This document shows positions 1-14,053 of a DNA stretch of 64,000 bases, one piece after another. Source of the stretch: Promethearchaeia archaeon (lineage in GTDB: Archaea; Asgardarchaeota; Lokiarchaeia; Sigyniarchaeales; SOKP01); contig JAHQWJ010000120.1 in assembly GCA_029856125.1 (NCBI GenBank), positions 1-64,000 on the forward strand, written 5' to 3'. Below the pieces are notes generated by a model. The model did not search any database, was not told where the DNA came from, and saw only the letters and a program-made list of their open reading frames with translations. Each line of letters opens with the position of its first letter. The stretch's first letter is position 1. The position numbers and the translations under genes are program-made.

Positions 1-145
1 TAGTTTCTTTTGAGATCGCAAATAAATCTAATACTGTACTTACCGTACTTCCAATCGGCAATGTGACTATTTTTTTTGGTGGAGCAATATTTCGTAAATT
101 AGCGAAAAATTTGATAGTTGCTGTGATATTCTTTTTATCATTCAT
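1..145 (-). CDS. MoaD/ThiS-family protein, truncated by window edge (MNDKKNITATIKFFANLRNIAPPKK...)
   Basis: Manually translated; IKFFANLR is a typical MoaD N-terminus; its ATG (145-143) lies just inside the 3' end of the upstream gene; downstream of AOR. Confidence 0.75.
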   Translation of the reverse strand, partial: MNDKKNITATIKFFANLRNIAPPKKIVTLPIGSTVSTVLDLFAISKET

Positions 146-425
146 CTTCATTTCGTTCAAAATACCATTTGTATAATAGAGACATATTCCTAGGAAACAG
201 ACCAACTCTATCGCCGTCTTTTACTTTTTTATTGAATCCCGAATATGTGCCATTCACAAATAAGTGATATGTATCCTCTTTTTCAATTGCATATTTATTT
301 AATATATCGGAGATAGTTTCGATTCCATTGCTTTCAATTTGCAAATTTAATGGTAAAGCGTCTGAAATAGTGTAGCCTTCAATTTTTTTCCGTAAATCTC
401 CAAAAATTTTCACTAAGATAGTCAT
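138..425 (-). CDS. MoaD/ThiS-like beta-grasp protein lacking C-terminal GG
   Basis: VKIFGDLR N-terminus and FVNG...VKDGDRVGLFP; ends in RNMSLLYKWYFERNEDE instead of GG. Confidence 0.75.
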   Translation of the reverse strand: MTILVKIFGDLRKKIEGYTISDALPLNLQIESNGIETISDILNKYAIEKEDTYHLFVNGTYSGFNKKVKDGDRVGLFPRNMSLLYKWYFERNEDE

Positions 426-434
426 TTTAAAAAA

Positions 435-2171
435 CTATGCGCCCCAAACTTTGTCTAATTCCTCATCTGATACGTTAAATACTTCATTGTGTGGTGGTAA
501 CGGCTCCTTTAAGAAAAACTCTGGTAATCTATCGTCTTTTTCTGTAAAACCCGCTGCCTTGTTAAATGCTCTTTCAGTATCTATAATTTGTTGTCCATAA
601 CCGGCTACATCATTAACAGTAAGACTAGTCCCTAATACACCATTAAGCGTATCAACAACGCCTACTAATCCTTCAGGAATATCTAATACAGCAAAAGCGA
701 TGAAAAGACAATATCCTGATGCATCTATGGCTGCAGTAGCGAGTTGCAAATTGCGCGATAAATCAGACTTATTTGTATCTTTAGGATCTGCTGTTCCACC
801 GACTCCCATGATTTCAGTGGCGATAGCATATCCTGCTGTGTGATCTGCCCCCTGAGGAGTCGTTGCATAAGTTACGCCAATTCCTTTAATTGCTCGTGGA
901 TCGTATGCAGGTAAGCTTTGACCTTTTACTACGGGAACTCTGGTCACACCAAATGCTTGTGCCGTAAAAGCTGTACCGTTGGCTAAAATTCTCCCAGTTG
1001 GAGTTTTTTTCTTAATTTCGTCGAATAACTTTAAAGCACCTTTTTCATCTCCAAATTCGGTTAAACCCCCTTCCATAGCAACTCCAATTAAACCACCCGC
1101 TTCAATCGTGTCTAAACCTAAATCGTTACAAGCTCTATTTAATTCTCCAATGACATCTAAATCGTAAATACTGCAATTTGGACCTAAAGCCCATACGCTT
1201 TCGTACTCTAAAACACCAACGGGATCTTTCCCACCGGGTTTTGTCCACACTTCAGAACATTGGATAACACATCCTGGACTACAGAAATGAGGACGAACGC
1301 CACCTCGCTTCTTTATTTCCTCTGCCTTTACCTCTCCAGATACTTTTTCAGATCTATCGTCTTGACCAGATGAAAAATTACGCTGTGGTAACCCCCCTGC
1401 TTCGTTTATAATGTTGACTAATACTCCCGTGCCAAACGAATTAAGCGCTCCACCAGGTTTTGTTACGTCGTGGCTGGTTAAAGCGTTCGTTAATTTTTTG
1501 ACACCCATATTAAAAGCTTCTTTGTTTAAAATCTCTACTCCTGGCGCTCCAGTATCATCTACTACAATAAATTTTAGCCCTTTTGATGCCATAACAGCAC
1601 CAAGTCCGCCTCGTCCTGCGTATCTACTTGGTAGTCCTTCAGGATCGTTAAAACAGATTCCAGAAGCGGCTCCCATTATTTCAGCTGCAATACCAACACC
1701 ACTAATACTTACTTTATCGCCAAATTCCTTATATAATTCTTTATAAACATCATAGAGTCCTTTATTCGACCACTTATTTGCTTTTATAATTTCAGTGCCA
1801 TCATTTGTAACTTTCAGGAGATAATAATCATCCCCTTTATGCTTACCTTCGACTACAATCGCGGCGATTCTCATTCTTCCTAATTTTTGAGCAAAATTTG
1901 TGCCTGCATTTGCCTCTTTAATCCCCCCTGTTAATGGAGATTTACCTCCAACAGATATTCGCCCAGATGTTGGCGCTTTTGATCCCGTAACCAGTCCCGG
2001 AGCAAATACTAGCTTATTATATGCCCCTAATGGATGGCAAAGTGGATCAACTTCTTTTGCAACAATTGTGGAGGTAAGAGCTCTTCCACCTAAAGCTACA
2101 AAATCTGCTGGAAAATCCTCAAAATTGGCTTCAAGTTTTGTCATATCTACTCTTAAAATTCTTTTTGCCAT
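435..2171 (-). CDS. aor: Tungsten-type aldehyde:ferredoxin oxidoreductase
   Basis: KSPLTGGIKEANAG, AGRGGLGAVMASKGLK, CxxGCxIxC, EYES, GLDTI, YDPR, GADH and DDRLP motifs. Confidence 0.93.
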   Translation of the reverse strand: MAKRILRVDMTKLEANFEDFPADFVALGGRALTSTIVAKEVDPLCHPLGAYNKLVFAPGLVTGSKAPTSGRISVGGKSPLTGGIKEANAGTNFAQKLGRMRIAAIVVEGKHKGDDYYLLKVTNDGTEIIKANKWSNKGLYDVYKELYKEFGDKVSISGVGIAAEIMGAASGICFNDPEGLPSRYAGRGGLGAVMASKGLKFIVVDDTGAPGVEILNKEAFNMGVKKLTNALTSHDVTKPGGALNSFGTGVLVNIINEAGGLPQRNFSSGQDDRSEKVSGEVKAEEIKKRGGVRPHFCSPGCVIQCSEVWTKPGGKDPVGVLEYESVWALGPNCSIYDLDVIGELNRACNDLGLDTIEAGGLIGVAMEGGLTEFGDEKGALKLFDEIKKKTPTGRILANGTAFTAQAFGVTRVPVVKGQSLPAYDPRAIKGIGVTYATTPQGADHTAGYAIATEIMGVGGTADPKDTNKSDLSRNLQLATAAIDASGYCLFIAFAVLDIPEGLVGVVDTLNGVLGTSLTVNDVAGYGQQIIDTERAFNKAAGFTEKDDRLPEFFLKEPLPPHNEVFNVSDEELDKVWGA

Positions 2172-2313
2172 GATATTTCACCTCTATTTTTAGGCATTTA
2201 ATATATGTGATAGATGGTTATATAAATCTACGTTATGTAAAGATAAACCAGACGAAAGATAAACTGAACAATACGATCATTTAATTGGTTAAAAAATGAT
2301 AAGATATAAAAAG

Positions 2314-2436
2314 CAGGCTCGAGGGGATTTGTTCAAGAAACGCGAAGTACGTATCTCATTGAACCCCCGACCTTCTGCTTTCTCCATACAAATTATGTAG
2401 GAGGCAGCTGCGATATCCGTGCTTCGCTACGAGCCT
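2314..2436 (-). tRNA. tRNA-Arg(CCT) with two introns (37/38: 2397-2380, 18 nt; 58/59: 2358-2329, 30 nt)
   Basis: Acceptor AGGCTCG/CGAGCCT, D arm GCGA/TCGC with A20, anticodon CCT at 2401-2399, T arm GGGGG-TTCAAAT-CCCCT after splicing; both introns form bulge-helix-bulge motifs; CCA not encoded. Confidence 0.9.
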
Positions 2437-2615
2437 TTTTTTTAAATAACGAGTGTTATGATCTAAAAATAACTATAAAATAAAAAAGTAGAGAAAATTG
2501 AGTGATCTTTTTAACCATAAAAGGAAACATAAATCAAAAGGTTTTAATTTTCAAGGTTAATTTAACATATTATAATAGATTATTTTGAAATATTTTTTTC
2601 TTAGAGCTAATTAAT

Positions 2616-2891
2616 ATGGAAAAGAGAAGCTATCAACAAGGCAAACCAAATAGACCCATTGATTATTTAAAGAATTCTATTGACAAGGTTATATTGATAA
2701 AAGTTAAGAGGAACCGCCTCTTCAGAGCAACTTTACGCTCGTTTGATGAACATCTGAATCTTTACATTGAAGATGCATCACAACTTTTCGAATATATGGA
2801 TGAAGATGGAAATGTTAAAGAAGAACACGAATCACTTGGCAATATTGTGTTACGTGGGGACAATGTTATCTTTTTGAATTTAGCAAATTAG
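2616..2891 (+). CDS. Sm/Lsm RNA-binding protein
   Basis: RPIDYL...LRSFDEHLNL (Sm1) and IVLRGDNVI (Sm2). Confidence 0.92.
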   Translation: MEKRSYQQGKPNRPIDYLKNSIDKVILIKVKRNRLFRATLRSFDEHLNLYIEDASQLFEYMDEDGNVKEEHESLGNIVLRGDNVIFLNLAN

Positions 2892-3071
2892 GGTAAAAAG
2901 ATTCTAGTCCTTGTTCCATTGGGTTTTTGAATCGTAATTAAAAATCATATAGGATCTTTACTTTCATTTAGATTAAGTAAAAAACATATTAAAGTTAAAG
3001 TCTTTTTCAATAAGTGAGAAACCTAATATTAAATTTGATTGATTTAGTTATTTAAAAAGAGATTTTAATAA

Positions 3072-5153
3072 GTGATTGAACCAGAATATCTCAAGCGACG
3101 AAATTCATTGGTAGTCAGCCCCAATTTAGGTCACCCCCTATATATTGGTATAGATAGCAGATTAAAGCAGAGAAAATTTGAAATTAAACTTTTATTTGCA
3201 AGTAATATTCCGAATTTAACTAATTTTGAGGGTTTTTTAAGAAAGAACCTAAAGCTCGTTCCAATTCTCGAATACAAGTGGAAGTTAACGAAATTACTTG
3301 AAAAAACAAAAAAAAAGGGGATATGGGACAAATTAAAAAGGTTTTTTGCCAGACGTAAAAAAAGCAGACAGAAGACGCAAGAAATCAAGGAAATCACCGA
3401 CTCAAAAGGAGATACATTTGATATTGTCCAAAGGGAAAAGTTAGAAAAGTTAAAACCACGGGCTTTTCGGGGGGATATAATAGACTGTACAGTTTTAGAC
3501 GTTCAAAATGAATATGAGCGTGAGATCGATAATCCAGGATATGACGATTATCTTAGTCCTCAAAATTATTTAGTCAAACATGAAATTTTTGGGGGTTTAA
3601 ATAAATTCTACTCAGCAACAATCAATTTTAGCCTGACAGATGAGGTAATCGAGTTTTTAAAGAGTTTTAACTTCGTAATGTTTGATATTCTCCAGCAAAA
3701 CCCGAATAAAGGTGATAGGATTAACTATCACTCGATTGTAATTTCAAAAAATGACTGGACCAATTTCAAATTTTTACACGCTACAGATTTACATTTAGCC
3801 GAAAGAAACGATAGACTCTATGAGATTGTTAAAAAATGGCAAAAATCAGTTAGAAAATCAGAAGTTGGCGAAATTGTAGCTCAAAGTGTTAAAGCAGTCT
3901 CTTATTTTCAGAGATTGTTAATGAAGAAACCAGAGGAAAAAGTTGAAACAACTAAACCATTGCACAAACGGTATATTAATCCTAATAATAATTTTAGAAA
4001 CTTTATCAAACACGTCAATAAGAGCGTGAATCAGAACGATTTAGATTTTGTAGTACTAACAGGAGATATCATCGATTTTTCTATTCTTTCAAAAATAAAA
4101 AAAGAGAAGAGGAGGACCTTAGACTTTGATTACGAATTTAGTAATTGGCGGATTTTTAAAGAAATTTTGTTAAACCACCCTCAAAAGATGAGACGAGGGA
4201 TGGTTACTGGAAACGAAATACTCTGTCCCATTTTTACAATCCCAGGAAACCATGATTTTCGTCCGTATCATTACGATCTTCGTTGGGGTAATTTGTACAA
4301 AAAAATAGGATTAAATGGTAACGAAGCGATTGCTTTGAACGACGAGTTGATGGCAAATCCCATTAGCTCTATTACGAAAAATTTCAGGGCTTTAAAAGCC
4401 TATTTAATAGAAATCAATTCGTCATTAGATTTTTCTCTCAAACTTGGAGAGAATATTTTCATTTTTCTAAACTCTGGTTCCGATTCTTTTAAAAACATTA
4501 TAGATTTTGTTAGTGGACACCCCTCGGTAACTGGAGTTTCCAACAAACAAATAAGGTATTTAGAGGACTTGATAAATAAAACCATTAAACCGGGATACAA
4601 TACATTTCTCATGGTTCATGGCCCTCCAATTAATCCTAAAAAAACCATGAGTAAACGATTTTCTCTTTCAAAAACAAAAGATAAAATGCCTTCTCTCGAA
4701 GAATTTAAAGAATCTGTTATGGAAAAATTGGGGAGGCTTCCTTCCGCAATTCGAATCAACGATAAATTTGACTTAAAATTTGGAACAATCTCTTCTAATT
4801 GGGCAAAAATCATAAAATTTTGCCTCGATTATTCTGTCCTTACTCTTTCAGGGCATACTCATCAATTAAAAGAGTTTAGGTTGAGTAATCCTCAACAGAA
4901 ATCTATAAATCCTAATACAACAATTCCAGTTAAACTAGAAAAATTAGAAAATCCCGCAGCTGTATACTACGATTACTATTCTGAAAGGCTTAAAAATCAA
5001 AACGAAGTTGAAATCAACGCCCCTTTTGTTGTCCAAACTCCCGCTTTAGGATTAGGGAGTTATCACAAACCTGTTTTAGCCGGGGCTTATCGAGAGATCA
5101 TAATCGAAAAAGGAAAATTATCTTCTTTTCATGTCAAGTATGTAAAACGATAA
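3072..5153 (+). CDS. Large calcineurin-like metallophosphoesterase with N-terminal extension
   Basis: DLH, GDIID, GNHD, H and GHTH motifs in canonical order. Confidence 0.8.
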   Translation: MIEPEYLKRRNSLVVSPNLGHPLYIGIDSRLKQRKFEIKLLFASNIPNLTNFEGFLRKNLKLVPILEYKWKLTKLLEKTKKKGIWDKLKRFFARRKKSRQKTQEIKEITDSKGDTFDIVQREKLEKLKPRAFRGDIIDCTVLDVQNEYEREIDNPGYDDYLSPQNYLVKHEIFGGLNKFYSATINFSLTDEVIEFLKSFNFVMFDILQQNPNKGDRINYHSIVISKNDWTNFKFLHATDLHLAERNDRLYEIVKKWQKSVRKSEVGEIVAQSVKAVSYFQRLLMKKPEEKVETTKPLHKRYINPNNNFRNFIKHVNKSVNQNDLDFVVLTGDIIDFSILSKIKKEKRRTLDFDYEFSNWRIFKEILLNHPQKMRRGMVTGNEILCPIFTIPGNHDFRPYHYDLRWGNLYKKIGLNGNEAIALNDELMANPISSITKNFRALKAYLIEINSSLDFSLKLGENIFIFLNSGSDSFKNIIDFVSGHPSVTGVSNKQIRYLEDLINKTIKPGYNTFLMVHGPPINPKKTMSKRFSLSKTKDKMPSLEEFKESVMEKLGRLPSAIRINDKFDLKFGTISSNWAKIIKFCLDYSVLTLSGHTHQLKEFRLSNPQQKSINPNTTIPVKLEKLENPAAVYYDYYSERLKNQNEVEINAPFVVQTPALGLGSYHKPVLAGAYREIIIEKGKLSSFHVKYVKR

Positions 5154-5173
5154 CCGGTTATAGTTTGAATAAA

Positions 5174-6664
5174 TTAATCGTTTAAACGTATAGGTCTTCC
5201 TTTTTTATGAATAGCCATGCCATATACATCTTCCATTCCTTCTAAAACCATCTCTGAAATTGTTGGATGGCTATGTATTGTAGTAGCAACATCGTGAACG
5301 GTTAATCCATGCTGCATGGCTAAAGAAATCTCAGATATTAATTCGGGTGCTTCAGCACCAATACAAGATGCACCTAGTATTTTGTTAGTTTTTTTATCGG
5401 CGATAATTAGTAAGAATCCATCTTCTTCTCCCATGCACTTCGCCTTCCCTAACGACTCATATGGGAATCTTCCCATAAGTAAATCATATCCCGAATTTTT
5501 TGCATTTTTTCTCCTTAGTCCTACTGATCCTATGTTTGGGCTTGTGAAAATAGTCGCGGGAATTATTCGGTAATTAGTAATTTTTTCTTTAACTTGGAAT
5601 TCATCTAGGCTTGCTAACGCATTTGCCACAGCAACATCACCTTCATACCTAGCAACATGAGCAAGCATTAATCCGCCTGTAACATCACCGATGGCAAATA
5701 TTCCTTTTACAGATGTTTCTAATGACTCAGAATCTACTTGAATTGCTCCGCGCGGAGCTTCTATTTTTAAATCCTCTAATCCTAAATTTCTTGATTCTTT
5801 TGCTCGGCCAATTGTAACCAAGCAGTAATCCGCTTCAACATAAGATTTTTTAGCCTTTTCTATCTGGTCTTTTGGAACATCAGCTGAAATTGTTGTTGCT
5901 TTCACGCCTGATCCTGTGTTTAGGATTGATAAAACATTTTGTGAAACAAGGATTTCGATACCAAGATTAGTAAACTTCTTTTGTATCTCTTTCACTACCA
6001 TAGGTTCTTCGGTTGCGATTGGAGAGGGAAGGTATTCAAGCATTGTAACTTTACTTCCAAAACTAGCAAATATATTAGCAAACTCAGCCCCAGCTACTCC
6101 GGCTCCAATAATAAGCAATTTATTCGGTAAAGTTTTAAAGTTAGGGTGTAAGACATCGTCAGTAGTTAATATTCTATCGTGGTCAATATTGAAAGCAGGA
6201 ATTAACACTGGAGTTGATCCTGTAGCAATTATTACCCTTTTAGCTTTAATTCTTTTATTATCGTTCCCTTCAATCGAAATTTCAAATCCTTCGTTTGCGT
6301 TTCCATTTAAAATCTTACCATGTCCTATATATACATCGTTTTTCCATGCACTTTCTAATGTCGCAATTCCATCAGTTAATTCTTTAACAACTTTATTTTT
6401 ACGAACAACAGCTTTACTGAAATCTAACTTAAAATCACCGAGAATTCCGTGATCCTCTCCCTTTTCCCTAAGTTTTTGGATAAACTCTGCCGATGCGTAG
6501 AGCGCTTTTGTTGGAATGCAACCTAAATTTAAACACGTACCTCCTAATTTATTTTTTTCAATCAAGGCAACTTTAGCACCAAATTGAGCAGCTCTAATAG
6601 CGGAATGGTATCCTCCTGGTCCTGAGCCAATTACTACAATATCATACAATTCTGAGCCTGGCAT
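5174..6664 (-). CDS. lpdA: Dihydrolipoamide dehydrogenase
   Basis: GSGPGGY, GGTCLNLGCIPTK, GDV, HSHPTISE. Confidence 0.93.
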   Translation of the reverse strand: MPGSELYDIVVIGSGPGGYHSAIRAAQFGAKVALIEKNKLGGTCLNLGCIPTKALYASAEFIQKLREKGEDHGILGDFKLDFSKAVVRKNKVVKELTDGIATLESAWKNDVYIGHGKILNGNANEGFEISIEGNDNKRIKAKRVIIATGSTPVLIPAFNIDHDRILTTDDVLHPNFKTLPNKLLIIGAGVAGAEFANIFASFGSKVTMLEYLPSPIATEEPMVVKEIQKKFTNLGIEILVSQNVLSILNTGSGVKATTISADVPKDQIEKAKKSYVEADYCLVTIGRAKESRNLGLEDLKIEAPRGAIQVDSESLETSVKGIFAIGDVTGGLMLAHVARYEGDVAVANALASLDEFQVKEKITNYRIIPATIFTSPNIGSVGLRRKNAKNSGYDLLMGRFPYESLGKAKCMGEEDGFLLIIADKKTNKILGASCIGAEAPELISEISLAMQHGLTVHDVATTIHSHPTISEMVLEGMEDVYGMAIHKKGRPIRLND

Positions 6665-8594: not shown

Positions 8595-10777
8595 ATGGCA
8601 CGTAAGAAAAAAGAAAAAGTACCTAGTAGGCCAAGAGAACAATCTAAGTCAAGTTATGGCTGGGCTGCAGAAGAAGCTGCTGATGAAAAATTAGCTGAAG
8701 GTCTAAAGAGATCTGATCTAGATAGCGGCAAGGTGATGCTAGTCGATAAAGATATTTCTACCCCTGTAATCGAGACATATGATGCAACTACGGGTGAATT
8801 AGAAGGATCAATTTTACTAAAAGATGGCAATAGAGAAGGAGTAACAGGACTAGTGAAAATTATTGAAAATGTTGATGTAGAGTTAGATCACGACTCTAAC
8901 ATAGAATCCATTAACTTTAAAGGCAATTTAAGTGTGGAAAATCAATCAAAGAAGGACAGGTTATGGGATATTGATCTTTCTCTCAAAAATATTGAAAGTA
9001 CCAACTTAAAATCAAAAGATATTAAAATCAGAGAGCTCGGAACTGATAATGATACTAATGCTTATACTGAAGATTTTGTCATTAAGGAAGAAATCAAAAA
9101 TTTGCTGCTTGTTCAAGAGTATGTTAACACTCTTCCTGAAGCCGATAACGTTCTAAATTTACGGGATATTGAAACTAATTTACTCAAAGCGAAAGATAAA
9201 ACTAGTAAGGCAGGCGCGAAAGTAAAAGAACGAGTGACTCCTGTAGAAGAAGAGGAGGAAGAAGGGAGGAAGAAGAGGAAGAAGAGGAAGAAGAGGATGA
9301 AACTTTAGAAGATGGAGGAACTGCCTCGGATGGATATTCTCTACAAGCTTTTGGAATTTCAATCGATAAAGAAAATACGGTTACCTTTGCTATTGCTATG
9401 AGAAATTTATTCGCAAAAGCAATTAAAAACGTTAAAGTTGTGAAAAATATTCCTGAGGATTTTAGCAATCCTGTTATAAGAGACACAACAGAAGGACGAG
9501 CAGAGGTTGAAGGTAATAAAGTTGTCTGGAACATTGAGAAGTTGATGCCTGAAACAACCGTTCTCATGAAATTTACCTGCAGTATCTTAGTAACAGACAT
9601 TACAAAGAGGAAAACAGGTACAATCGATGTAACATATGAAGCATCATCTTCCTTTGCAGAAGGTTTGGATATCGATAAATACGACGCTTATACTAGAAAC
9701 AAATTTTATGTTGATACGGTAGAGCGCGATGAAGAACCTGGCGTTTGGGATTGCAAGCTCGTTTTCGAAAACCCTTCAGAATTTATAATTCAATTGTTTA
9801 ATGCAGATGTGTATTCTCCCGAGGACGAATCTGTGAAATACGTTGATATAGATCCCAGTGATGTTCCATTATTACCGGCTGGTGCTCAATGGCACTCTAA
9901 AAAGTGGAAATTTGAATCTGAAGAATATCCTGCTTTTAGAAAGAAGCTCGAATTTCGAGTTATGCCTGATTTTCAAACAATCGTCATAGGAACTGCTTCC
10001 ATTGCTGATATTATATTAGAAATCGCAAGTATAGCAGGTGACATGTCTTACGACATAGAACAAGTTCCTACCTACAAAGAGAAAGATGTTATTGCCACAT
10101 TGAAGATGATCAATAATGGATCAGCCCCATTAAACGAAATCACCGTTGTTCAACAATATTTCAACGACGAATATCAACCACCTAAAGCTGATGAGATAAA
10201 AGTATTATGGGACCGAAAGGAAATTGAGCTTGATTCTAGATCTGTTAATTTTGACGGAAATGTTTTTAAAATTTCGCTGAAGGATCTCAGAAACTCGAGT
10301 AATGGTCTATTTATGCCGGAATCATCTTTAGAGTTTCAATACCCTGTTCATTGTATAAATCCCGCTCAAGACTCAAAGTTTGAATCAGAGATAACTTACT
10401 TTACTAATACATTCCCAGTTTCTCAAGAATTAGAGTTTAAGCCAGAAGTGCCCGTATTAGAAGCCTTACACCTGAGAAGGAGATTTAGAATTGGAAAGGA
10501 AGTCCTTCCAATTGGTGATTTAGGCAACTATGAAATAATCTTAACATTAGAGAATATTGGCACGGCACCTCTTCAAAAACTTGTTTTGATGGACAAGGTT
10601 CCAGATAGTTTTGAGTACTCTGATTATTCCATGAAACCCGAGATCACAGATGAAGTAGGACAAGATACACTCAAGTGGACAATTGATAAACTCATGGCTG
10701 AAGAAAAAATAGAGATCACCTATAAAATTAGCGGTACTGGAGCTTACTCTCCAAGCGACGCACAACTTGGACTATAA
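8595..10777 (+). CDS. One ~727-aa cytoplasmic multi-Ig/beta-sandwich protein (mu-homology-like N half, DUF11-like C end), split into ORFs 8595-9308 and 9398-10777 by a 1-nt frameshift at ~9264-9266
   Basis: The poly-Glu tract continues in the -1 frame (EEEEEEEEEEDETLEDGGTASDGYSLQAFGISIDKENTVTFAIAMRNLF...) with no stop into the second ORF. Confidence 0.8.
9246..9301 (+). repeat. Purine-rich GAA/GAG microsatellite encoding poly-Glu
   Basis: Repeated GAAGAAGAG-type units with one defective unit (GAAGG) at the frameshift. Confidence 0.9.
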
Positions 10778-10931
10778 TTATTATTTATTTTAAATTTTTT
10801 TTTTATATTATTTTTAAATTTTCATGTCCATTTAATAAGTATAAAAGAACTTCTATAACTATAATTAAAGAATATGAATACTGCTATTAATATTAAAAAA
10901 TCATAATATTAAGTATCTCGTGTAATGAACC

Positions 10932-12611
10932 ATGTCAAAACTCAAAAACCACTTTAATATGAATTGGATGTTTGAATGCCCTGATGCTGTTCTCACTTGT
11001 TCAACATTAAAATGTGGAGACAAATCATATATTATATTTGGGGGGCACGATAAGACCTTATACTTAATGGACGAAAATCTAAACATCCTTGATAACATTA
11101 CTTTTGATGGATGGGTGAGAACTACTCATGCTGTAGATATCACACAAGATGGTTGCGAAGAGGTTCTTGTAGGTGCTGGAGATGGCAATTTTTTGGTCGT
11201 AAAATTAGTTAAAGGTATCGACAAGCTAGCAGGCATTATGAATTTTAAATCAAAGGGTAAAGTTTTATGCGTTGTTGCTGGAGATTTTACTAGAGATAAA
11301 AATATAGAGCTGATTAATGGAAGCGAAGACAAAACTCTTAAAATTTTCGAAAATATAGATTCTAAAGAACCAAAGTACATTCTTTATTATGATTCGTGGG
11401 TAACTGCTATTACTTTGGGTTATCTAAAATTACCTGAAATTGATATTCCTATTTATGGATTATTAGCAGGTACTAAAAATGGGACGCTTCAATTAATTCA
11501 ATTTAAAGGAAATAAGCCAGATATTGTTTGGCAAAGAGAATTGGGGTCACAAATTAATACAATCGAAATAGGGGATGTTTCAAACGACGGCTATCACGAG
11601 ATTGTAGTCGGAACGGACGATTCCTTTATTAAAATATTTAATAGTAAGGGCGAAGAGTTAAAAGCTATAAAGATTGAAGAAAGTCGACCTATTTCTTTAA
11701 AAATAATTGATATCGATGCAGATAACGCTAAAGAAATAATAGTAGGCTGTGCTGATGGCTCGCTTTTCATATACCATAACCCTAACTTAGATTCATTAGA
11801 TATTGAGTTGAAATGGAAAACCTCCGCATCAAACTCTATTAAGATTGTTTCATCATTTGTAAATCCTGACGATGGTATAACGAACATCCTATTTGGTGGG
11901 TACGATAGAAGTATTAGGTGTATAACCGATTGTGAATGCGGCGAAAAACCCCCTTTAGAGATTCCGTATAACATAAAAATCTCGGAGCCTCAACCTACAG
12001 ATATAGAGGCTAATGAAGCGAAACCCATTATATTTGAAACCGTCCCAACTAACATTAGAGAATATATTTTCAAATATTTAATAGATAATAGGATTATAGA
12101 AGGAATTGGTGCAGAATTAGAGAAAAGAGGATATCTTACTGATAGTGTTGTAGAAGAATTTCAGCGAATGATTTCGGAAAAACCTGATTCCTATGATAAA
12201 ATAACATATTCAGTATGGAGTTTACCAGAAGATAAAATAGGTATAGGTGGCACGCTTGGAACTTCCGTTAAAAAGGGAAAAAAGATAAAACCCGTTGTAA
12301 TAGAACAAGAGATTTCTCCTCGAAAAGGAGGGGCGTTAATTGAGGCTTTGAAGCTGGAGGGAAAAAAGGAAAAACCCATAAATAATACACCCTCTACAGA
12401 AACTGTAGCTGAAATTAATTTAAAAACTATTATTATCACTCACTTAGAAAAATTCAAATTAATCCCCAGCAAAAACAAATTAATTGAAGATCTTGCGATT
12501 TTGGGATACGGTAGGGAAGTCGTTGAAAAACAAATCGATAAACTGAGACGTGAGGGAATCCTCATCTATTCACGCACAGAACCTAAGGGATGGAGTCTGG
12601 GGACTTACTAA
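10932..12611 (+). CDS. FG-GAP/WD40-like beta-propeller (BBS2-like blades) with probable C-terminal winged helix
   Basis: Repeats DITQDGCEEVLVGAGD, DFTRDKNIELINGSEDKTLKIF, DVSNDGYHEIVVGTDDSFIKIF, DIDADNAKEIIVGCADG; C-terminal IDKLRREGILIYSRTEPKGW. Confidence 0.75.
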   Translation: MSKLKNHFNMNWMFECPDAVLTCSTLKCGDKSYIIFGGHDKTLYLMDENLNILDNITFDGWVRTTHAVDITQDGCEEVLVGAGDGNFLVVKLVKGIDKLAGIMNFKSKGKVLCVVAGDFTRDKNIELINGSEDKTLKIFENIDSKEPKYILYYDSWVTAITLGYLKLPEIDIPIYGLLAGTKNGTLQLIQFKGNKPDIVWQRELGSQINTIEIGDVSNDGYHEIVVGTDDSFIKIFNSKGEELKAIKIEESRPISLKIIDIDADNAKEIIVGCADGSLFIYHNPNLDSLDIELKWKTSASNSIKIVSSFVNPDDGITNILFGGYDRSIRCITDCECGEKPPLEIPYNIKISEPQPTDIEANEAKPIIFETVPTNIREYIFKYLIDNRIIEGIGAELEKRGYLTDSVVEEFQRMISEKPDSYDKITYSVWSLPEDKIGIGGTLGTSVKKGKKIKPVVIEQEISPRKGGALIEALKLEGKKEKPINNTPSTETVAEINLKTIIITHLEKFKLIPSKNKLIEDLAILGYGREVVEKQIDKLRREGILIYSRTEPKGWSLGTY

Positions 12612-12616
12612 TTCCT

Positions 12617-13054
12617 TCAATTCAAGATAAACTCTTTAATCTCGTTCTGAAACGGTTCAAATTGAGTAAATTCTGTTAAGTCCTTGTTACTATATCTCGT
12701 TATAAAAAGATTCAAGATAGGGTCGATCTTCTCTAGGAATTTTTTAACAAACTTATCTGTATCTTTCTTCTTTTTATCAACTAAACCGTATAAAATAACT
12801 GGTTCCGTAACATTGTAATTTGCGGCTTGCATTTCAAGGGCTTTAAAAATAAATAAGATGTTCCCTGATTCTAAATATTCTAATGAAAGATTGTTGAAAG
12901 CAGTTTTAGCAAATGTGTTTATAGCTGAAATAAATCCTCCTCTCAAATCCTTGCTCACATTTTTAACTTTTTCCTTTTTTTCAATTTTCTTAAACTCGTA
13001 ACTTACTAGGATAAATCCTCGGAACACAATACCTATCTCGTATAGCTCTTTCAT
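12617..13054 (-). CDS. Stand-alone longin-like protein (~145 aa; likely start MKELYEIG, ORF track extends it to 13159)
   Basis: Beta-beta-helix pattern EIGIVFRGFILVSYEF...DLRGGFISAINTFAKTAF...LEYLESGNILFIF...FEPFQNEIKEFI typical of Asgard longins. Confidence 0.65.
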   Translation of the reverse strand: MKELYEIGIVFRGFILVSYEFKKIEKKEKVKNVSKDLRGGFISAINTFAKTAFNNLSLEYLESGNILFIFKALEMQAANYNVTEPVILYGLVDKKKKDTDKFVKKFLEKIDPILNLFITRYSNKDLTEFTQFEPFQNEIKEFILN

Positions 13055-13174
13055 TTTTATTAGTCTAATATTTAATAGGAAGACTTCTATATTATTCCTA
13101 TTATCATTATAAAAATTTTCATATTTATTATTACACAAAAATAAAATACAAAAAATCATTCTTAGGTTTCACAA

Positions 13175-13372
13175 TTGAAAAAAGTATGTAAATGGTATCA
13201 ATGTTGCCCGATTAAATATTTTGTAGATCACAGAATGCTCGAAAAAAAATGGGTTGAGGATTACTGTTTAATAGGAAATAAGAAGTGTATTAGGTATCAG
13301 AAAGAAGAGAATGGGGAATTTCATCCCGATAATTTACTCCCTAATGGAGAGATTCGAAAAGAGTTAAAATAA
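13175..13372 (+). CDS. Small conserved Cys-rich protein (CKWYxxCP...YC...C.RY...PDNLLPNG)
   Basis: Recognisable conserved small-protein motif; function unknown. Confidence 0.7.
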   Translation: MKKVCKWYQCCPIKYFVDHRMLEKKWVEDYCLIGNKKCIRYQKEENGEFHPDNLLPNGEIRKELK

Positions 13373-14053
13373 ATAACTATTACCAACACATATATCAATA
13401 AATTGTTCAGAAAATCTTTGCTTTATTTCCCTAATTTTTTGCGTACAGTGACAAGCTCCTATGAATTCAATTCCTTCTAGAAAATTTAAATTCCGAAATC
13501 CATGAAACCCGCCAATAATGGCTTTAATTTCGTTCGATATAATTTTACTCTTTAAAATAAATGTTTCTAAACCAGGATGTGCGCAGCCTGAGATTATTAT
13601 TAAATCATTATTTTCGGTTTTTAAAAACAAAGATTGCTCCTTTAAGAATCCATCTCCAAATTGCCCCGAAGAAAAAATATTCTTTTCAATCTCGAACAGA
13701 TCAGAGATGGTTTGAACTTGAGCTTCGGGGTAATCCCTAATAAAAGATTTTACAGCGTGGAGTGGCACGTAAATTTCAATATCATGGTTAATTTGATAAA
13801 TTTCTTTTAACCCTCCAGTATGATCGTAGTGGTTATGGGAAATTATAACTTTCTTTATTTCTGGAACCGTAATGTTAAATTTGTTTATGTTGTGAATTAA
13901 AATATCGTCTTTACTTCCTGTATCAAATAATAAGTGGGTTTTTGAGAGATTATTATAAATTAAGGCTGAAAAACCAAAACCCGTTAAAAAACCCGGTTGT
14001 GCGCAGATGTCGTCATAAACAATTTTAATTTCAAAAGAAAAGTCAGATTTCAT
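13364..14053 (-). CDS. MBL-fold metallo-hydrolase
   Basis: LFDTG, SHNHYDHTGG, GCAHPG, GGFH, CHCT. Confidence 0.88.
   Translation of the reverse strand: MKSDFSFEIKIVYDDICAQPGFLTGFGFSALIYNNLSKTHLLFDTGSKDDILIHNINKFNITVPEIKKVIISHNHYDHTGGLKEIYQINHDIEIYVPLHAVKSFIRDYPEAQVQTISDLFEIEKNIFSSGQFGDGFLKEQSLFLKTENNDLIIISGCAHPGLETFILKSKIISNEIKAIIGGFHGFRNLNFLEGIEFIGACHCTQKIREIKQRFSEQFIDICVGNSYLF

Follow-up and report, generated by a model that had tools for sequence, protein, structure and literature searches.

A predicted mu-homology-domain protein and its propeller neighbor: a candidate two-gene unit of Loki-type Asgard archaea

How vesicle adaptors originated is an open question in the emergence of eukaryotes, and a cluster of three genes in an Asgard archaeon poses it in a specific form: do these genes encode the parts of an ancestral adaptor or coat, or a smaller unit of another kind? 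The cluster lies in a stretch of 64,000 nucleotides (nt), hereafter the window, from a Promethearchaeia archaeon (assembly GCA_029856125.1, contig JAHQWJ010000120.1, positions 1 to 64,000 of the forward strand). Genes A and B, which are co-oriented, encode a soluble protein with a predicted mu-homology domain (MHD) and a protein with a predicted seven-bladed propeller, respectively, and gene C, convergent with B, encodes a small longin-type protein. A first-pass annotation of this DNA had proposed that all three belong to a proto-adaptor or coat module, and all three genes, together with the peptides that it quoted, are present where it placed them. We lean toward a narrower reading, in which A and B constitute, in Loki-type Asgard archaea, a cytoplasmic unit of two genes whose products work together, probably as a complex, and in which the longin gene would be a conserved neighbor outside that unit.

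Parts of this picture are already known. Eme et al. 2023 (PMC10307638, Supplementary Table 3) list 44 Asgard candidates for the signature protein Adap_comp_sub, which belong to the gene A family, and describe them on Pfam evidence as sparsely distributed and not fused to Clat_adaptor_s; similarly, a preprint lists a BBS7/ITFG2 cluster with the Asgard signature proteins already catalogued (bioRxiv 10.64898/2026.10.28.762692). The domains that Liu et al. and Makarova et al. term “adaptin” are of the appendage kind, not MHDs. A literature search for “mu homology” in Asgard archaea or in archaea at large turned up nothing, nor did we find a paper on the pairing of A with B or on the architecture of an MHD followed by two immunoglobulin-like (Ig) domains. 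What is added here is the structural confirmation of the MHD by prediction, its wide spread among Asgard archaea, and the A-B pairing. Until now, Asgard records of the MHD have consisted only of scattered, borderline Pfam matches; a complete fold, present in most sampled Asgard genomes and accompanied in the Loki type by a fixed propeller partner, offers a concrete two-protein unit that can be tested, and dropping the longin from the proposed module narrows the set of candidates for such testing.

The mu-homology fold of gene A

In AP mu subunits, delta-COP, and the muniscins of eukaryotes, the MHD serves as a bipartite beta-sandwich platform for binding partner proteins and short peptide motifs. 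We modeled P0001, one of five intact homologues (P0001 to P0005; 714 to 717 amino acids [aa]) that are identical to gene A outside a polyglutamate (poly-Glu) tract, with AlphaFold2 (AF2) from a 93-sequence alignment of diverse homologues, which yielded a mean predicted local distance difference test score (pLDDT) of 89.7 and a predicted template modeling score (pTM) of 0.80. A Foldseek search with this model returned many generic multi-Ig proteins at low template modeling (TM) score and the MHD chains of mu2 at target-normalized TM-scores of 0.62 to 0.74. After alignment of the Foldseek hits with VIA-align, MHDs fill the first 38 places, led by AP-2 mu2 (5wrk_A; Z score of 16.6, root mean square deviation [rmsd] of 3.6 Å over 225/245 residues, model residues 80 to 462 against mu2 residues 168 to 435) and including mu4 (Z score of 15.1), mu1 (15.1), and mu3 (14.8), with delta-COP (14.2) at ranks 41 to 43.

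A search independent of Foldseek agrees: among 48,161 representative chains, the Z scores are 16.1 for mu2, 15.1 for mu4, 14.8 for mu3, 13.8 for mu1, 13.7 for delta-COP (12.6 for yeast delta-COP), 13.1 for SGIP1, and 11.5 for Syp1. Over residues 80 to 462, every well-superposed match in this search (rmsd of <5 Å, >200 residues aligned) is an MHD, and the few remaining rows are multi-Ig adhesins at an rmsd of 5 to 22 Å. As modeled, gene A contains the complete bipartite all-beta topology of an MHD, and the whole two-subdomain fold is common to it and to the mu subunits of AP-1 to AP-4, delta-COP, and the muniscins (SGIP1 and Syp1/FCHo). The mu-homology-like fold suspected in the first-pass annotation is thus borne out by the agreement of two structure searches; the contrary outcome, a generic DUF11 fold without MHD topology, was put to the same searches and the opposite was found, with MHDs on top.

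At the sequence level, the similarity of gene A to AP, COPI, and muniscin MHDs is weak but specific. A hidden Markov model (HMM) of the A family, compared with all PDB sequences, finds mu3 and mu2 as its top 18 matches (E values of 0.01 to 0.06), placing KIIENVDVELD... on the first strands of the mu2 MHD and ...GNKVVWNIEKL... on the “ENAIVWKIKRM” strands of mu2 subdomain B, which agrees with the earlier view that two gene A peptides mark the start and end of an AP-type MHD. Many orthologues of A carry precomputed matches to PF00928 (Adap_comp_sub), and the window fragment at 9257 to 10774 scores 32.8 bits against the cutoff of 31.6, with DUF11 scoring 41 bits over the same stretch. The best DUF11 and PF00928 stretches coincide at P0001 residues 249 to 340, in MHD subdomain B, which, rather than the last domain, is where DUF11 matches best in P0001 and in the window fragment alike. 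Sequence comparison hints that MHD subdomain B is related to prokaryotic DUF11 beta-sandwiches.

Outside the MHD, gene A is built differently from the AP mu subunits, delta-COP, and the muniscins: it has no N-terminal longin or F-BAR domain, and it adds an acidic loop of ~45 residues and two Ig domains. Residues 1 to 57 form only a basic tail and one helix in the AF2 model, and neither this part of the model nor Pfam places a longin domain in the chain. Beyond the MHD, residues 467 to 616 resemble the pilin domains of BcpA, SpaD, and RrgB (Z scores of 13.9 to 14.3, both structure searches), and a second beta-sandwich domain follows residue 616, at ~620 to 717; in the homologue P0116, Pfam recognizes this last domain as DUF11 (residues 639 to 703). 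The N-terminal extensions of nine longer homologues (900 to 1,340 aa) carry no Pfam domain beyond DUF11, so no fusion partner hints at the function of A. Unlike the medium subunits of AP and COPI complexes, gene A is not encoded together with adaptin large chains or sigma-type small chains.

Protein searches of a sample of 201 Asgard genomes recover the A family in 167 of them, as proteins of ~580 to 790 aa with 22 to 28% identity outside the order. PF00928 reaches an E value of 1e-3 in 44 of the 201 genomes and its curated cutoff in 9; all of its matches in this sample lie inside open reading frames (ORFs) of the A family, and 14 control genomes yielded no match. The first candidate listed by Eme et al., Jordarchaeia GBS07_35160, has N-terminal motifs in common with the gene A family. 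Compared with that list, the present analysis tests the fold by structure prediction and finds the family in 167 of 201 genomes rather than in the 9 recognized at the Pfam cutoff, and because of this difference, the “sparse” distribution of the MHD in the literature reflects limits of detection.

Distant A homologues have a recurrent neighbor of their own. In 8 of 20 such loci (L056 to L062 and L065), which come from four other Asgard families, a gene of ~230 aa with a metallo-beta-lactamase (MBL) fold lies directly upstream of an A homologue of ~600 aa, on the same strand. The window also contains an MBL gene (Table 1), and we considered it as an orthologue of these genes, but upon comparison it proved not to be orthologous.

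Gene B and its pairing with gene A

Gene B matches the Pfam family Beta-prop_BBS7 far above threshold (87.4 bits against a cutoff of 27; E value of 1.4e-24) and further matches BBS2_Mid, Itfg2, and FG-GAP, the BBS2_Mid match spanning only 28 residues of one blade. The AF2 model (pLDDT of 79.3) contains 28 strands, equivalent to seven blades, and divides the protein into a propeller (residues 8 to 333), a three-helix module (375 to 415), a disordered linker (417 to 491), and a winged-helix-like module (492 to 556). Seven-bladed propellers are common to B, to BBS2 and BBS7 of the BBSome, and to ITFG2 of KICSTOR (PF23743, PF14783, and PF15907), and the blades of B carry the FG-GAP-like pattern D-x-D-x-D-G-x-x-E-hydrophobic-G, as do those of the BBS2, BBS7, and ITFG2 propellers. 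The BBS2-like propeller proposed earlier is, in these terms, sustained as a BBS/ITFG2-type propeller by the Beta-prop_BBS7 match and the seven blades. This subtype is settled by sequence, not by structure comparison: BBS2 (6vbu_2) has a Z score of 35.0, level with CIAO1 and further WD40 propellers (all with Z scores of 33 to 35). Gene B also differs from BBS2 and BBS7 in its tail, which is helical and winged-helix-like and is without their coiled-coil, gamma-adaptin ear (GAE), and platform domains.

The tail invites a different view of the pair, in which B acts as a regulator that binds DNA through the winged helix and senses through the propeller, and A is merely its neighbor or target. The C-terminal module does have the winged-helix order helix-helix-helix-strand-strand in the AF2 model, and Atlas points to winged-helix domains, but the Atlas scores of 0.86 to 0.88 are leads only, and the tail has no Pfam match and matches only designed helical proteins among PDB sequences. 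Moreover, the nearest families, the MCM winged-helix domain (WHD) and RPA_C, are winged helices that bind protein rather than DNA, and we regard a DNA-binding role as very doubtful.

Still harder to credit is the view that A and B resemble adhesins and are secreted or exposed at the surface, being made of DUF11 repeats and an FG-GAP or integrin-like propeller. The Pfam matches to DUF11 and FG-GAP and the pilin-like Ig matches in the structure searches are what such proteins would give; however, sequence prediction finds no signal peptide or credible transmembrane segment in A, B, or C, as had been noted earlier for the signal peptide of A, and no anchor is present. The sole hydrophobic window of A (residues 453 to 471) is modeled as confident beta-strands, and neither the acidic disordered loop of A nor the winged-helix-like tail of B fits an adhesin.

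The case for a unit rests on how A and B occur together. For pairing, we used 80 species-level genomes with a B orthologue, in which 73 loci have enough flanking sequence to assess A and the count for C covers 78. In all 73, the gene immediately before B, in the same orientation, is A (median gap, 157 nt). In the family-level sample, 26 genomes have both A and B, 9 have neither, and none has A alone. Their absence from genera g3 and g4 and from genome G144 is joint: the pair is gone as one clean unit, the flanks are intact, and C comes directly after the MOFRL gene. Among the 201 Asgard genomes, full-length B is found only in this family and in one genome of a sister family (G165), in which A (38% identical) and a full-length B (22% identical) again adjoin one another, this time convergently and in another context (locus L050). 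Evolutionarily, A and B act as a single unit, with C as a separable neighbor.

Several observations weigh against a working partnership of A and B, and some of them also favor an alternative, that the two genes are functionally unrelated and are held adjacent only by strong synteny within the family. Adjacency by itself is weak evidence, because the whole neighborhood is syntenic: the block metallophosphoesterase, pyridine-nucleotide-disulfide oxidoreductase, MOFRL, A, B, C, MBL, Fer4 is conserved in its entirety. A run of 8 to 11 T residues stands at the same position after the gene A stop codon in nine of nine aligned orthologous spacers (including L031 to L043). The conserved run, T10 in the window, is possibly an archaeal terminator, and it suggests separate A and B transcripts. 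Genome G138 retains intact B and C but no more of A than its final 46 codons, which shows that B can outlast A. Conversely, the ancestral role of the A family does not need B, because A occurs across the Asgard archaea and full-length B was found only in this order. The MHD assignment has its own weak points: Pfam finds no PF00928 match in full-length P0001 (DUF11 only), and a genome-wide search of G000 found none either, such that Pfam support for an MHD in the family is borderline. In addition, the HMM alignment, at only 13 to 17 bits, sets mu2 D176 against K88 and the K341/K343/K345 patch against T-E-G-R-A-E. The mu2 residues that bind YxxPhi and phosphatidylinositol 4,5-bisphosphate (PIP2) do not appear, on this weak alignment, to be conserved in A, and because they fall on nonequivalent positions, YxxPhi or PIP2 binding by A should not be assumed.

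Two features of these loci deserve mention in their own right. Within the A-B spacer, an AT-rich segment containing a conserved TTTAAT motif follows the T-run, upstream of B, and from its sequence the spacer looks like a terminator plus a separate promoter. At the G138 locus (L044, G138:C25, positions 1 to 6300), a 1,936-aa ORF that runs off the start of the contig lies 5′ of the A remnant, and the arrangement suggests that a rearrangement or insertion removed A.

Despite these points, unrelated neighbors seem to us a minority possibility, if one that must be taken seriously: adjacency in 73 of 73 loci, the joint absence of A and B between flanks that stay in place, and the renewed adjacency in a second family, in another orientation and context, all speak against it. 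We therefore keep to the reading of A and B as a two-gene unit that works together. The missing signal peptides and transmembrane segments would place both proteins in the cytoplasm, and gene order suggests that they would bind one another physically. The MHD and Ig domains of A would form a platform for proteins or peptides, and the propeller and winged helices of B would serve as a scaffold or oligomerization partner; a ligand of the pair, or a role at membranes, would likewise be putative.

A more far-reaching version holds that A-B is a working archaeal cargo or membrane adaptor complex whose MHD is the direct forerunner of those of AP, COPI, and TSET and was built from DUF11-type beta-sandwiches, an origin that is proposed because MHD subdomain B still matches DUF11. 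If it were true, adaptor-type cargo recognition would predate both eukaryotes and the fusion of longin to MHD. We consider this version improbable.

Gene C and the proposed coat

Gene C was described in the first-pass annotation as a sigma-sized longin, a description that holds for the longin but not for any kinship to sigma. The start codon is placed at the ATG at 13054, because most of the 120 homologues listed (of 587 found) are 145 aa in length, and the 180-aa ORF begins at an earlier ATG and so carries 35 extra hydrophobic residues that are not conserved (Table 1). No Pfam model passes its threshold for C, with only subthreshold hints from 26 orthologues and 8 paralogues, and profiles of C have no match among PDB sequences; an Atlas lead (0.89) points to Fuz_longin_1. 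In an hhalign comparison, however, the C profile and Loki proteins above the Pfam Fuz_longin_1 cutoff align with a probability of 98.1% (E value of 1e-13), and the profile of those proteins reaches the PDB longin domains of Mon1 (1.4e-5) and SRX (2e-4). On profile evidence, C is a longin, closest to the Fuz/Mon1 type. It resembles in this respect the stand-alone Fuz/Mon1 (tri-longin) longins of Asgard archaea, to which it aligns, although it passes no Pfam longin model itself. We tried C as a sigma-adaptin and excluded this assignment on the basis of its Fuz/Mon1-type affinity and the failure of PF01217 (Clat_adaptor_s) to match anywhere in the genome up to an E value of 10, a search with limited sensitivity to very divergent forms.

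This identity bears directly on the proposal of a three-part proto-adaptor or coat complex, in which the MHD of A and the free longin would be a split version of the mu and sigma chains. Much about the proposal is attractive: all three folds are real, C adjoins B in 76 of 78 loci, and the mu subunits of eukaryotes combine a longin with an MHD. Nevertheless, C orthologues occur in 40 of 40 genomes of the family, including the 9 without A and B, where they stand next to MOFRL, and in the two exceptional loci A and B are kept without C. Gene C is, moreover, convergent with B instead of co-oriented with it and is of the Fuz/Mon1-like type. As a result, the three-gene module does not survive as such: only A and B covary, and the neighborhood comparison that was to reveal co-conservation of all three genes finds it for A and B and finds C to be separable.

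Nor is there other coat machinery nearby. The locus encodes no adaptin trunk, alpha-solenoid, sigma chain, or small GTPase recognizable by Pfam, and the neighboring genes are metabolic. A coat is not supported, because these components are missing from the locus, and of the original idea the three folds stand while the coat does not; a proto-adaptor or coat role for the locus has the rank of a hypothesis, and we think a complex of A, B, and C distinctly unlikely.

Reading frame and setting of the locus

The window has a G+C content of ~34% and belongs to a genome of 3.7 Mb from a Loki-type (Promethearchaeota) Asgard archaeon; the features of the locus are collected in Table 1.

Table 1. Features of the A-B-C locus, in window coordinates
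Feature	Position	Strand	Description
Gene A	8595-10777	+	ORFs 8595-9308 and 9398-10777; soluble protein of ~717 aa; basic N-terminal tail, one helix, MHD, two Ig/DUF11 domains
GAA/GAG (poly-Glu) repeat holding the frameshift	9246-9300	+	Three-frame translations
Predicted MHD	8832-10009	+	P0001 residues 80-462
Coinciding best DUF11 and PF00928 stretches	~9368-9643		P0001 residues 249-340
Two C-terminal Ig-like beta-sandwich domains, DUF11/pilin-like	10022-10774	+	Residues ~467-616 and ~620-717
T10 run	10795-10804	+	18 nt past the gene A stop codon
Gene B	10932-12611	+	559 aa; predicted FG-GAP/BBS/ITFG2-type seven-bladed propeller and winged-helix-like tail
Gene C	12617-13054	-	145-aa stand-alone longin-type protein, convergent with B
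Upstream extension of the gene C ORF	13055-13159		35 unconserved hydrophobic residues
MBL gene	13364-14053		Not orthologous to the MBL genes beside distant A homologues

In the window, gene A is split by a net one-base shift at about 9264 to 9266, inside the poly-Glu repeat. From about 9212 onward the second frame is open, and the first ends at TAG 9306 to 9308. At the protein level, the tract corresponds to an acidic, disordered loop within the MHD (residues ~205 to 250; pLDDT of 56 to 60 over residues 210 to 240 of the P0001 model), and its length differs even between the closest relatives of gene A. Rather than gene loss or decay, the most likely cause of the shift is misassembly or population variation within this hypervariable tract, because intact, nearly identical proteins exist, no A match listed from the 201 sampled genomes has an internal stop, and the tract varies in length. 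Programmed frameshifting was also considered and is ruled out by the same intact proteins, stop-free matches, and length variation.

Finally, some public records that contain this Loki-type locus carry odd labels: L120 (DATKTW010000130.1) and several contigs of metagenome-assembled genomes (MAGs) with DZ* accessions are named as “Candidatus Nanopelagicaceae bacterium” or as Odin-, Thor-, Hod-, or Hermodarchaeota. These taxon labels look like errors of binning or naming.

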